Shown: positions 27,332 to 43,535, counted from the first letter of the stretch. The stretch is DNA of 64,000 nt from Ignavibacteria bacterium (GCA_016709315.1 JADJMZ010000007.1:291546-355545), one strand, 5' to 3'. The notes: generated by a model from the sequence alone, not told the origin. Made by a program: numbers and translations.

Positions 27332-28804
27332 ATGGCAAATATTAATAATAAGCTGCTCTTTTTTATAAGATCACTTACAGAATCCGAATTAAATGAGTTC
27401 AGAAAATTCATCATTTCTCCTTTATATACTTCGGGAAGGAATTATGATACTCTCTTAAATGAAATTATAAAATTCAACAGCAAAGAAAGCAGCAGATTAA
27501 CAGTTCAGGACTTGTATTCAAAATTGTATCCCGGAAAAACATTTAATCCGCAGACTATAAAAAACCGCTTTTCCGAACTTCTTAAGCTAGGTGAAGAATT
27601 TCTTGTCTACAGAAAAATTCAGGACAGTCCCGCTGAGAAAGACAAACTGCTTCTTAGTTCCTACCTTGACAGAAAAATGTATAAATTCCTTGACAGTAAA
27701 CTGCAGAAAGAAATTTTCGAATTATCTTCAGCTCCTGATGATATTAAAAAATTTGAAAATTTATTTTCCCTTCAGGAAATGAGTATCAGGTCGCTTGGAG
27801 AAAAGAAAAAATTCGATGCCTATTTTCAAAAATTCTTTGAAAATACTTTGCTATCTACTTCCATATTTCTTAATAATCTGTTCACTAACGGCATAGAATA
27901 TAAGCAGCAGGAATATCTTAACAGAAAATATGAATTTAATTTTGTCCTTGAGATTCTGAAAGATATGAATCTTGCGAAAGTAATGAAGAAATGTCACAGT
28001 TCGGATCTGAAGATTCTTAAGATTGTGTCGATGAATTATAATCTGTACAAAGCCTATGAAAATATTAATAATGAGGATAATTATTTTGAAGCAAGAAAGA
28101 TATTTCATGAGCTTCATGATTCTCTGAGTAATGAATATAAACTCCAGCTTTATATGATCTTCATATACTTTTGCACAAGAAAGCAGAATCAGGGAATCAA
28201 TAAATATTACAATGAGCTGTTTAAACTGTTTAATGAGAAACTTGATTCAGGTTTTCACAGTGACTTCAGTCAGAATATTTATCCGCTTAGCAGTTTCAGA
28301 GATTATGTGTTTGTCGGGATTGAAGTAAATAAACTCAGCTGGGTAGATGACTTTCTGAAAAAGTATTCTGTTCTTCTGCCGGAAGACGTCAGAGATAATG
28401 AGGTCAATATTGCCAATGCAAAACTCTTCATCGCAAGAAAGAAATATCAGAATGCGCTCAGTATTATATCCGGTGTCAAGCCATCGAATTTTCTGCATTA
28501 TATTGATGTCTCTCTTATCAAACTGATAAGTTATTATGAACTCGGCGAATATGAAGATGCTTTTACTCTTATTGACAGGACAAGTCACTATATGAGAAAC
28601 CACAAGGAAATACCAAAATCCCACATGGTGAATTTCACAGGGTTTATAAAATTTCTCCATTTGCTTCTTAATGCTGCTACAGATACTAAGGTAAAAGATC
28701 AGGCATTTCTTTTTAACGAACTTAATAAATATAAATTGATTTCAAAACGGGACTGGCTGATTGAAAAGATATCTGAACTCAATAAACAAAAAAAGGCCGT
28801 CTGA
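27332..28804 (+). CDS. Hypothetical all-helical cytoplasmic protein (TPR-like?), function unknown
   Basis: 490-aa ORF with normal codon usage, no signal peptide and no recognised motif. Divergent from the 24588-27140 gene. Confidence 0.7.
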   Translation: MANINNKLLFFIRSLTESELNEFRKFIISPLYTSGRNYDTLLNEIIKFNSKESSRLTVQDLYSKLYPGKTFNPQTIKNRFSELLKLGEEFLVYRKIQDSPAEKDKLLLSSYLDRKMYKFLDSKLQKEIFELSSAPDDIKKFENLFSLQEMSIRSLGEKKKFDAYFQKFFENTLLSTSIFLNNLFTNGIEYKQQEYLNRKYEFNFVLEILKDMNLAKVMKKCHSSDLKILKIVSMNYNLYKAYENINNEDNYFEARKIFHELHDSLSNEYKLQLYMIFIYFCTRKQNQGINKYYNELFKLFNEKLDSGFHSDFSQNIYPLSSFRDYVFVGIEVNKLSWVDDFLKKYSVLLPEDVRDNEVNIANAKLFIARKKYQNALSIISGVKPSNFLHYIDVSLIKLISYYELGEYEDAFTLIDRTSHYMRNHKEIPKSHMVNFTGFIKFLHLLLNAATDTKVKDQAFLFNELNKYKLISKRDWLIEKISELNKQKKAV

Positions 28805-28811
28805 TGACAGC
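28781..28811. repeat. Left copy of the 31/32-nt direct repeat bracketing the repeat-array/GxxExxY cassette
   Basis: aataaacaaaaaaaggccgtctgatgacagc. Identical to 30112-30143 apart from one extra A. Overlaps the last codons and stop of the 27332-28804 ORF. Confidence 0.9.
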
Positions 28812-28920
28812 TATTTTAGTAAATATTTCTTCCTTAATTTTTGTTGAATGAAGTGTAATTCGTAATACCACTCAACAAACTATCTTTACTTTTACTTTAA
28901 CCAAATCTATTTTCTCAAAT

Positions 28921-29650
28921 ATATTCGCAGATGAAGAATGTTGAAAAATTCTTCTGCGGAAATTGCTCTTTGCGAATTTAATTTTTTCACACAGACATTC
29001 GCAGATGAAGAATATTAAATAATTTCATCAGCGTAAATCTGCGAATCACATCTGCGTAAATCTGCGAGAATTTCTCTTTGTGATTATGATTTATTTCACG
29101 CAGATATTCGCAGATGAAGAATATATTGAAATACCATCAGCGTAAATCTGCGAATCACATCTGCGTAAATCTGCGAGAATTTCTCTTTGCGATTATGATT
29201 TATTTCACGCAGATATTCGCAGATAAAAAATATTTTAAAATACCATCAGCGTAAATCTGCGAGAATTTCTCTTTGCGATTAAGATTTATTTCACGCAGAC
29301 ATTCGCAGATAAAAAATATTTTAAAATACCATCAGCGCAAATCTGCGAATCACATCTGCGTAAATCTGCGAGAATATCTCTTTACGATTATGATTTATTT
29401 CACGCAGATATTCGCAGATAAAGAATATTTTAAAATACCATCAGCGCAAATCTGCGAATCATATCTGCGTAAATCTGCGAGAATTTCTCTTTGCGATTAA
29501 GATTTATTTCACGCAGATATTCGCAGATAAAGAATATATTGAAATACCATCAGCGTAAATCTGCGAATCACATCTGCGTTCTTCTGCGAGAATTGCTCTT
29601 TGCGATTAAGATTTTTTTCACACAGATATTCGCAGATAAAAAATGTTTAA
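28921..29650. repeat. Tandem array of a 109-bp unit (six units plus partial ends; one unit is 86 bp)
   Basis: The unit marker tcacRcaga recurs at 28987, 29096, 29205, 29291, 29400, 29509 and 29618. The spacings are 109, 109, 86, 109, 109 and 109. Units are near-identical throughout. Confidence 0.95.
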
Positions 29651-29703
29651 TAATTCTTCTGCTCAAATGAGTTCAGTTTTGATAAAATATTTAAACGATT
29701 AGA

Positions 29704-30093
29704 ATGGAAAAAATTGAGAACAAAATATCTTTTGATATAAGAGGATGCGCTTTTAAGATTCATAATGCATTAGGACCCGGATTACTGGAATCTGTTTATG
29801 ATGCGGCATTATCATACGAACTAATTCAACTTGGATATAATGTCAAAAATCAAATTGGTATTCCAATGCTATATGAAAACATACGAATGGATGTTGGATT
29901 CAGACTGGATATTCTGGTGAACGATCTGGTAATTATAGAAATCAAGTCTGTCGAAAAGATGACAGATTTATATTTCAAGCAACTTTTAACTTATCTGAAA
30001 CTGTCAAACAGAAAATTAGGATTACTCATTAATTTTAATTCGGTGTTATTGGAAGATAAAGAATCAATATTCCGAATTGCCAATAACCTGTAA
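29704..30093 (+). CDS. GxxExxY family protein (PD-(D/E)XK nuclease-like fold family)
   Basis: 129 aa with the defining GPGLLESVY motif near the N-terminus. DILVNDLVIIEIKS fits a D...ExK-type core. Confidence 0.8.
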   Translation: MEKIENKISFDIRGCAFKIHNALGPGLLESVYDAALSYELIQLGYNVKNQIGIPMLYENIRMDVGFRLDILVNDLVIIEIKSVEKMTDLYFKQLLTYLKLSNRKLGLLINFNSVLLEDKESIFRIANNL

Positions 30094-30111: not shown

Positions 30112-30150
30112 AATAAAACAAAAAAAGGCCGTCTGATGACAGCCTTTTTT
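30112..30150. terminator. Right copy of the direct repeat; bidirectional hairpin terminator
   Basis: aataaaacaaaaaaaggccgtctgatgacagcctttttt. An A-run, stem aggccgtc/gacagcct and a T-run sit between convergent genes ending at 30093 and 30179. Confidence 0.7.
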
Positions 30151-43307: not shown

Positions 43308-43535
43308 CTACTATTAACAGAAGACCCTCTACTATTAACAGAAGACCCTCTACTATTAACAGAAGACCCTCTACTATTAACAGAAGACCCTCTACTATTA
43401 ACAGAAGACCCTCTACTATTAACAGAAGATCTGCTACTATTAACAGAAGACCTACTATTAACAGAAGACCCTCTACTATTAACAGAAGACCCTCTACTAT
43501 AAACAGAAGACCTGATACTATTAACAGAAGTCTTT
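43308..43535. repeat. 21-bp tandem repeat, 11 units (ctactattaacagaagaccct)
   Basis: Units counted directly. Five perfect consecutive copies from 43308, then variants, including one 18-nt unit at 43434-43451. Confidence 0.95.

Follow-up and report, generated by a model that had tools for sequence, protein, structure and literature searches.

Heptamer-box arrays of a cross-phylum repeat family associated with GxxExxY genes, seen from a tandem array in an Ignavibacteria genome

The closest described counterparts of the repeats studied here are pairs formed by a gene that acts on DNA and dispersed short sequences lacking an open reading frame (ORF). In Proteobacteria, repetitive extragenic palindromic (REP) sequences and their mosaic arrays, the bacterial interspersed mosaic elements (BIMEs), accompany genes of REP-associated tyrosine transposases (RAYTs), forming REPtrons. 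A REP is an imperfect palindrome of 20-40 nt with a GTAG or CGTC tag at one end (PMC3733652). Insertion sequences (IS) and miniature inverted-repeat transposable elements (MITEs) form a second such pair. Here we analyse a tandem array of 7-nt boxes (ATCTGCG and its reverse complement CGCAGAT) in 64,000 nt of Ignavibacteria bacterium DNA (GCA_016709315.1, JADJMZ010000007.1:291546-355545), hereafter the window. The array precedes a gene of the GxxExxY family (PF13366/TIGR04256), which a survey of PD-(D/E)XK proteins from 2012 lists as having an unknown function and multiple transfers (PMC3424549). On balance, we read the array as a tandem cluster of ORF-less modules of a REP/MITE-like element associated with GxxExxY, whose heptamers would be nuclease sites and whose spread would be selfish. 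The literature searched, with subscription journals outside its coverage, gave no account of the box repeat or of its association with GxxExxY, and the repeat family is apparently undescribed.

The boxes of the window are shared by a family of loci that extends across phyla. We scanned one genome per species (596 Gb, both strands) with the pattern TCTGCG-N6-ATCTGCG-N4-TCTGCG, which specifies 19 bases. It matches at least 119 loci, where about 4 are expected by chance according to our estimate. The matches come from several classes of Bacteroidota and from Ignavibacteria, Patescibacteria, Cloacimonadota, Anaerolineae, Elusimicrobia, Verrucomicrobia, Acidobacteria, Planctomycetes, and Burkholderiales, and some genomes supply many matching contigs among the matches listed. 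The recurring module has three or four boxes with 10-13-10 (or 10-12-10) spacing, followed by GGAAA, AGAAA, or TGAAA. Among the matches listed, an inverted partner precedes the module in 52 cases and follows it in 21, and the module stands alone in 41 of 128. The unit of the window fits the definition of the family, a module of 2-4 CRCARAK heptamers ending in (N)GAAA, and has the 10-13-10 spacing. Loci sampled by protein similarity show 9-10 nt within a doublet of boxes and 11-16 nt between doublets.

Near-identical modules are dispersed. One consensus, TTTC-[CGCAGAT TTT CGCAGAT TTAACC CGCAGAT TTT CGCAAAT]-loop-[four ATCTGCG boxes]-TGAAA, is present in 20 copies, distributed over 12 contigs that carry the label of one metagenome-assembled genome (MAG) and 7 further loci grouped by sequence only. 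Pairwise, these copies average 82% identity in the arm and 27% in the flank, and the similarity stops exactly at the ends. Inverted box modules of the same kind occur in two settings, flanking GxxExxY ORFs and building ORF-less hairpins, and they are clustered in tandem in the window and at loci L098, L105, L067, L151, and L218. The ORF-less modules lie within 40 nt of a start codon in 9 of 126 cases (4 of 126 in the control), too weak an excess to claim a preference. A search for distant partners of solo modules that would enclose another gene returned, apart from GxxExxY cases already known, a single ORF-free span. One Bacteroidota MAG (GL16_Down_concoct_50) has boxes of two types, which argues against a universal host factor. 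At both of the loci concerned (L047 and L118), a hairpin of CGCAAAG/CTTTGCG type stands directly beside one of ATCTGCG type. In one MAG, three paralogous ORFs of about 200 aa lie beside box hairpins (L029:1612-2208, L059:6657-7250, L095:1940-2593). They have a D..ExK-like motif (ECDFFF...LVEAKK) and no Pfam match, and may represent a second nuclease-like family linked to the boxes.

The association of boxes with GxxExxY genes is near-obligate when viewed from the gene. Among the matches listed, GxxExxY is the one ORF family that repeatedly neighbours the box loci and is not generally abundant, and all seven clear GxxExxY ORFs have a box cluster no more than 400 nt away and, in most cases, clusters on either side. 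An eighth, weak match (L023) was rejected as a DUF4143/AAA ORF. For the reverse test, we took 81 GxxExxY loci from metagenome and viral contigs, chosen by protein similarity alone. Exact TCTGCG/CGCAGA hexamers number 6.1 per kb less than 300 nt from the gene and 0.37 per kb more than 1 kb away, which places the density near the genes at 16 times the background. With a degenerate box (CRCWRAK), 36 of the 63 genes that have enough flanking sequence show at least two reverse (CGCAGA-type) boxes upstream and at least two forward (TCTGCG-type) boxes downstream, and 54 of the 63 have at least two such boxes on one side or both. Control windows displaced by 1.5 kb gave 0/81 and 2/81 (both-sided, 0/81). 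Boxes are densest in the 60 nt next to the start and stop codons of GxxExxY.

The type of box follows the type of protein. Loci that lack ATCTGCG have the same layout with other heptamers: CGCAAAG/CTTTGCG, CGCAGAG/CTCTGCG, CACAGAT/ATCTGTG, or CACAAAG/CTTTGTG. In 66 of 80 cases (25.8 expected), a protein and its nearest neighbour by similarity share a box type, a value reached by 0 of 2000 permutations. The protein of the window, a member of PF13366, clusters with the GCAGAT-type clade, in agreement with the boxes of the array. Mutual information between protein columns and box type singled out R13, A16, H20, N21, and C-terminal positions; this signal is inseparable from phylogeny and we do not count it as evidence. 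In cultured genomes with the same layout, GxxExxY is co-oriented within runs of housekeeping genes, and the gaps of 2-60 nt hold the box modules. Examples are Bernardetia (L223, NZ_CP147018.1; ade - GxxExxY - guanylyltransferase, with CACAGAG and CTCTGTG boxes), Bacteroides finegoldii (L225, NZ_OY725952.1; radA - GxxExxY, with TTCAC-CACAGAG.. upstream and ..CTCTGTG-GTGAA downstream), and Sphingomonas parapaucimobilis (L224, NZ_CP155749.1; fabD-GxxExxY-fabG-acpP-fabF, with CGCGAAG boxes). The gene tables of these records, which hold protein-coding genes only, list no repeat features.

The enclosed ORFs (125-130 aa) match only PF13366 in Pfam. The residues invariant in the alignments are G26, E29, and Y32, which form the motif that names the family, and D69, E79, and K81, the catalytic triad of PD-(D/E)XK nucleases. 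The AlphaFold2 model has a mean predicted local distance difference test (pLDDT) score of 89. A profile of the protein found no match at E <= 1 among the sequences of the PDB, and Foldseek found only distant PD-(D/E)XK relatives (best E = 1e-3): lambda-type exonucleases, the Cas4 protein SSO0001, tRNA-splicing endonucleases, and a Holliday-junction resolvase. The family is very large, with 7998 of the 8000 candidates scored in a homology search passing E = 1e-5. Searching for the protein in the phage collection gave nothing; plasmid records gave 8 matches, largely on megaplasmids, and viral contigs gave 1. The exact sequence encoded in the window is not on record.

The features of the locus and of its array, by position in the window, are as follows.

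27332-28804 (+): gene of 490 aa, the upstream neighbour of the array
28784..28811 (+): left copy of the exact 28-nt direct repeat AAACAAAAAAAGGCCGTCTGATGACAGC, from sequence comparison within the window
28812..28922 (+): non-repetitive leader of the cassette, conserved in the orthologous loci L012 and L010
28897-28925 (+): sigma-70-like site TTAACC-17-TATATT, a consensus match only, directly before the first box
28923..28996 (+): degenerate first unit, 74 nt, with one CGCAGAT box, a hairpin GAAGAAT..ATTCTTC, and one TTCTGCG box
28997..29214 (+): two full units of 109 nt, from Tandem Repeats Finder and the split at ATTCGCAGAT
29215..29300 (+): short unit of 86 nt, in which a 23-nt deletion cuts the forward-box module from four boxes to two
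29301..29627 (+): three full units of 109 nt, from Tandem Repeats Finder and the split at ATTCGCAGAT
29628..29703 (+): terminal partial unit with a CGCAGAT box, a loop, and a degenerate TTCTGCT box
29704..30093 (+): GxxExxY gene, 129 aa (PF13366 E = 3e-35; TIGR04256 E = 2e-37)
30116-30143 (no strand assigned): right copy of the 28-nt direct repeat, part of the terminator hairpin
30121-30150 (no strand assigned): bidirectional terminator hairpin AAAAAAGGCCGTCTGATGACAGCCTTTTTT, which holds part of the right copy of the direct repeat

The array and the GxxExxY gene form a cassette of 1332 nt (leader, array, and gene), an insertion in the terminator that separates two convergent genes. The two copies of AAACAAAAAAAGGCCGTCTGATGACAGC are 1332 nt apart, bracket both, and are the only ones in the window. 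The left copy encodes the C-terminal end of the 490-aa protein, stop codon included. The repeat duplicates most of the terminator hairpin, which precedes the convergent gene, encoding a BNR-repeat protein of 1048 aa with a sorting tail of the type IX secretion system (T9SS). In Ignavibacteria where the 490-aa protein is 47-49% identical, the flanking synteny is kept, the array and the GxxExxY gene are absent, and 76 or 7 nt separate the 490-aa gene from the large convergent gene; in one of these array-less loci (L219), the stop codon lies inside the loop of the terminator hairpin. This empty site amid conserved synteny therefore identifies the cassette as an insertion. Species in which the 490-aa protein is 84-96% identical keep the array and the gene in place, with other versions of the units, and a 21-nt direct repeat brackets the cassette in L012. 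A GxxExxY gene 81% identical to that of the window, with arrays of its own, lies at a different locus of another Ignavibacteria MAG, next to gnd-zwf-pgl-glk. The original prediction, which concerned the repeats of the window, had missed the adjoining GxxExxY gene, the bracketing direct repeat, and the wide family of boxes.

The copy number of the units is unstable. An identical 490-aa protein is encoded on GCA_016718975.1 contig JADKBA010000016.1 and on many metagenome contigs. The intergenic gap in assemblies that share it measures 899 nt in the window, 912 nt in L001, and 681 nt in L006. These assemblies contain the same unit variants, including variants of 86 and 122 nt, in other order and number. 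Many short-read contigs end at this locus inside the array or shortly before it. Hence, unit number and order change between close relatives. More distantly, the units of L012 occur with or without a 33-nt block of three boxes. The differences of 23 nt, 33 nt, and whole units support an origin of the arrays by unequal recombination or slippage.

Within the array, Tandem Repeats Finder, which we used for period and identity, reports periods of 109 and 86 over 28953-29648. Unit borders were set by splitting the sequence at ATTCGCAGAT, which places the starts at 28923, 28997, 29106, 29215, 29301, 29410, 29519, and 29628, with spacings of 74, 109, 109, 86, 109, 109, and 109 nt. The split bears out the predicted series 109, 109, 86, 109, 109, 109 and recovers the claimed units; the degenerate unit of 74 nt at the start had been overlooked. 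A full unit runs from TTCAC-GCAGAT ATT CGCAGAT through a 20-nt loop to the module of forward boxes and a spacer of about 22 nt. The forward boxes (ATCAGCG-TAA-ATCTGCG-AATCAC-ATCTGCG-TAA-ATCTGCG-AGAAT) start 10, 13, and 10 nt apart and form a four-box module. The predicted anatomy was right, and to its five boxes a sixth, degenerate one (ATCAGCG) has to be added in every full unit. The 86-nt unit lacks exactly ATCTGCGAATCACATCTGCGTAA, i.e., 23 nt (13 + 10, two boxes with their linkers), the very deficit that had been claimed. The loop of the terminal partial unit is homologous to the loops of the other units, and this unit continues into the leader of the GxxExxY gene, whose start is 66 nt past the last box. 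In total, the array comprises six mini-modules without an ORF and two partial ones.

Exact copies of ATCTGCG/CGCAGAT number 27 in the array and 6 in the remainder of the window, and shuffles of the whole window have a mean of 5.5 and a maximum of 12. The prediction had put the number of copies in the array at about 30. The array does not have the repeat-spacer organisation of a CRISPR array, as the prediction had also stated: its 109-nt units are 89-96% identical as wholes, stretches between the boxes included. Each unit spacer (28968-29622) carries one CTTTGCG heptamer about 12 nt past the last ATCTGCG box, replaced in two spacers by CTTTGTG or CTTTACG. CTTTGCG boxes characterise the other main clade of GxxExxY. 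The stretch of leader with the sigma-70-like site (28897-28925) is conserved in the orthologous loci L012 and L010, and if the site were active, the array would constitute a leader of about 780 nt in the GxxExxY mRNA.

Around the array lie a conserved hypothetical gene, the GxxExxY gene, and genes of secreted BNR/T9SS proteins, in chromosomal synteny. The 490-aa protein has no match in Pfam and NCBIfam, and its named homologues come only from MAGs of Ignavibacteria and Bacteroidetes. A row of very large predicted secreted proteins is encoded on the minus strand from 22462 to 54143, with BNR, Sortilin-Vps10 or PSII_BNR, and LVIVD repeats, dockerin-like tails, and T9SS sorting domains; several of them appear paralogous. 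A GC-skew turn at ~16 kb coincides with a change of gene orientation. The window has a second intergenic tandem repeat at 43308-43530 (unit of 21 nt, + strand consensus CTACTATTAACAGAAGACCCT, 10.8 copies, 92% matches). It lies in a 990-nt gap between two large minus-strand genes of secreted proteins, about 400 nt upstream of the start of a 1112-aa gene, and is covered only by a spurious ORF of 81 aa.

These observations can be joined in the following scheme. The canonical element has the form TTTC(N)-[CGCAGAT-type box]x2-4, GxxExxY ORF, [ATCTGCG-type box]x2-4-(N)GAAA. Its ORF-less derivatives consist of two box modules that face each other across a short loop; they are dispersed and can pile up in tandem. 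In the window, the cassette was inserted, and the array would then have grown and shrunk by unequal recombination or slippage between boxes and units. The heptamers are most likely recognition sites of the GxxExxY PD-(D/E)XK nuclease, which would read them as duplex DNA or possibly as extruded hairpins, and would drive or maintain a selfish spread of the element analogous to that of REP/RAYT or IS/MITE. If so, the array would have no host function of its own.

Several points weigh against this reading. The GxxExxY gene of the window has box modules upstream only and none downstream, i.e., the canonical inverted layout is degenerate here, and a search of the 64-kb window for further box clusters found none besides the array. 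We know of no precedent for a PD-(D/E)XK protein of about 125 aa that mobilises DNA alone. A target-site duplication was sought around the 20 ORF-less copies and none was evident. Common descent of the gene and its flanks, instead of co-adaptation, could account for the link between box type and protein clade. Binning errors may lie behind the MAG labels of some matches (Citrobacter, Limnohabitans). At several GxxExxY insertions, the same neighbouring genes recur in different taxa (L140, L141, L148, and L041; L196, L201, and L212). One group of insertions lies upstream of a gene for a protein that starts M..KLK[IV]..VVGTRPEIIRLS and looks like a UDP-GlcNAc 2-epimerase. The shared neighbours suggest that these insertions are old and vertically inherited; therefore mobility, if any, would be infrequent. 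Finally, the unit hairpins have z-scores of -2.4 to -3.3 relative to shuffled sequence, so single strands may have a structural role.

This last point also belongs to the strongest rival, an element that acts at the RNA level, which we consider unlikely. Here the inverted modules would pair in the transcript, either enclosing the GxxExxY ORF or forming ORF-less stem-loops. As in the intervening sequences of 23S rRNA or in REP stems, the paired regions could serve RNase III processing or stabilise the mRNA, and the array of the window could be either a long, structured 5' leader or several small RNAs. It is the strongest rival because of the operon context: GxxExxY genes are co-oriented in operons with narrow gaps, which insulation at the RNA level would fit. 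The ORF lies between inverted modules in the 36 of 63 genes mentioned above, a promoter-like site is conserved ahead of the array, and tRNA-splicing endonucleases are among the weak Foldseek matches. The minimum-free-energy fold of the unit is moreover the predicted 18-bp hairpin with a 3-nt CAC bulge, on both strands and as RNA and DNA. The pattern of conservation does not follow the stems, however. Between the arms of 21 hairpins with four-box modules in both arms, the boxes are 95% identical, the five-base tail 75%, and the 3-nt linkers 33-51%. The linkers lack complementarity, and in 16 of the 21 the two arms have middle linkers of unequal length. Several arrays have ATCAGCG or CGCTGAT throughout one arm, which places an A.A or T.T mismatch at the centre of every box. 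Among 15 distinct units of 108-109 nt from the window locus and its orthologues, a set whose low divergence gives little power, no compensatory change was found in the 18-bp hairpin and 19 of 20 variant cells break a pair. About a third of the modules (the 41 of 128 given above) are solo.

Searches for RNA families gave a similar picture. Rfam 15 has no match in the 64-kb window at the gathering score, only chance-level matches over the array at a permissive E-value, and, in 14 related loci at the gathering score, two tRNAs only, i.e., no RNA family that corresponds to the repeats. The sequence and spacing of the heptamers are conserved across phyla and the linkers are not. Pairing alone leaves the 2-4 heptamers per arm unexplained, and the conservation of sequence across phyla argues against it. 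Conserved heptamers with roughly conserved spacing and free linkers point to repeated sites of protein recognition and not to a selected base-paired structure. Accordingly, among the candidate roles named in the original prediction, that of protein-binding boxes is favoured. An array of structured RNAs, for which covariation between units had been proposed as a check, is not supported but retains a low probability; iterons in the sense of plasmid origins and a centromere-like site are not supported either, and a satellite is contradicted.

A purely cis-regulatory operator array is slightly less probable again than the RNA-level element. The boxes would bind GxxExxY or another regulator, tandem amplification would tune expression, and nothing would be mobile. 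The array does lie directly upstream of the GxxExxY gene and differs in copy number from strain to strain, its boxes follow one another at about one helical turn, as in direct-repeat operators, and box type tracks protein clade. However, 112 of the 119 loci have no GxxExxY gene nearby among the matches listed, near-identical copies occur at many unrelated loci, boxes are found downstream of the ORF as often as upstream, and the cassette is an insertion relative to distant relatives. A neutral satellite, produced by slippage and with neither function nor relatives, is very improbable. The variation of unit number and order among closely related assemblies and the presence of mutated boxes that are not repaired would suit it. 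Against it, the array occupies the same position in species with an 84-96% identical 490-aa protein, and the same heptamers with the same spacing recur around most GxxExxY genes and, across many phyla, at the loci of the scan (at least 119). The repeat therefore recurs and is conserved in related genomes, whereas the original prediction had named its absence there, together with a lack of transcription, as favouring a satellite. Plasmid-type iterons, a replication origin, or a parS-like centromere, which short boxes spaced by about one helical turn might recall, can practically be set aside: the neighbouring genes examined (22.4-36.7 kb) include no rep, par, or dnaA functions, the ~16 kb GC-skew turn matches the change of gene orientation, chromosomal synteny is conserved, some genomes hold many copies, and matches to the protein are absent from the phage collection and limited to the 8 given above among plasmids, mostly on megaplasmids.

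Returning to the GxxExxY-associated element, a wider proposal can be made, which we regard as tentative. GxxExxY proteins may be the enzymes of an unrecognised group of small selfish elements that spans phyla; they would recognise inverted, clade-specific heptamers and mobilise or copy ORF-less hairpins in trans, as a counterpart of REP/RAYT with another fold, and the array of the window would be a product of tandem amplification. Should nearly all its genes be flanked by clade-specific heptamer modules, PF13366/TIGR04256 would gain a concrete and testable substrate, and a class of intergenic repeats that breaks short-read assemblies would be explained. A second, mechanistically distinct pair of a nuclease gene and dispersed palindromic repeats would stand beside REP/RAYT. 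For annotation, the boxes offer a simple rule to recognise these repeats and their variable-number arrays.

The comparison with modular intergenic repeats of other kinds is brief. The NIME/dRS3 repeats of Neisseria and the pneumococcal BOX elements are likewise modular intergenic arrays built around short inverted repeats, variable in number and order between strains, but they are restricted to a genus and have no dedicated nuclease as neighbour, whereas the boxes described here cross phyla and accompany one protein family. The ORF-bearing intervening sequences of 23S rRNA (S23p four-helix-bundle) also have inverted repeats that enclose a small ORF of unknown function, inserted in a transcribed, structured context. 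The box element differs in lying outside rRNA, in its protein family, and in having arrays of heptamers instead of a continuous stem.

In IS/MITE pairs as in the box element, gene-carrying forms and short ORF-less forms have common inverted ends, near-identical copies lie at unrelated loci, and, at the locus of the window, a filled and an empty site can be compared. Ends built of repeated subterminal sites, as in Tn7 or Mu, are likewise shared. In contrast to these systems, the box element encodes no DDE, HUH, serine, or tyrosine recombinase and no recognised transposase. No consistent target-site duplication is evident among its dispersed copies, and the 28 nt at the cassette of the window far exceed a typical one. 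Many of its gene-carrying copies look old and syntenic.

The REP/BIME-RAYT system shares with the box family short intergenic palindromic repeats in many dispersed copies and in tandem mosaic arrays; for the boxes, dispersed copies on at least 12 contigs labelled as one MAG occur alongside tandem clusters elsewhere. In both, the gene of a cognate nuclease or transposase is flanked by inverted repeats, and the arrays often lie at the 3' ends of genes, beside terminators. The differences concern the protein and the repeat. The protein linked to the boxes is a PD-(D/E)XK nuclease of 125 aa and not a RAYT, which is a Y1/HUH enzyme (IS200/IS605-like). An arm of the box element consists of 2-4 identical heptamers with unconstrained linkers, unlike the single imperfect palindrome of a REP, and its units are bounded by TTTC(N) and (N)GAAA and lack a GTAG or CGTC tag. 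Also unlike REP/RAYT, there are several GxxExxY copies per genome and the box family spans many phyla. Should the nuclease prove to act on the boxes, these elements could constitute a class apart.

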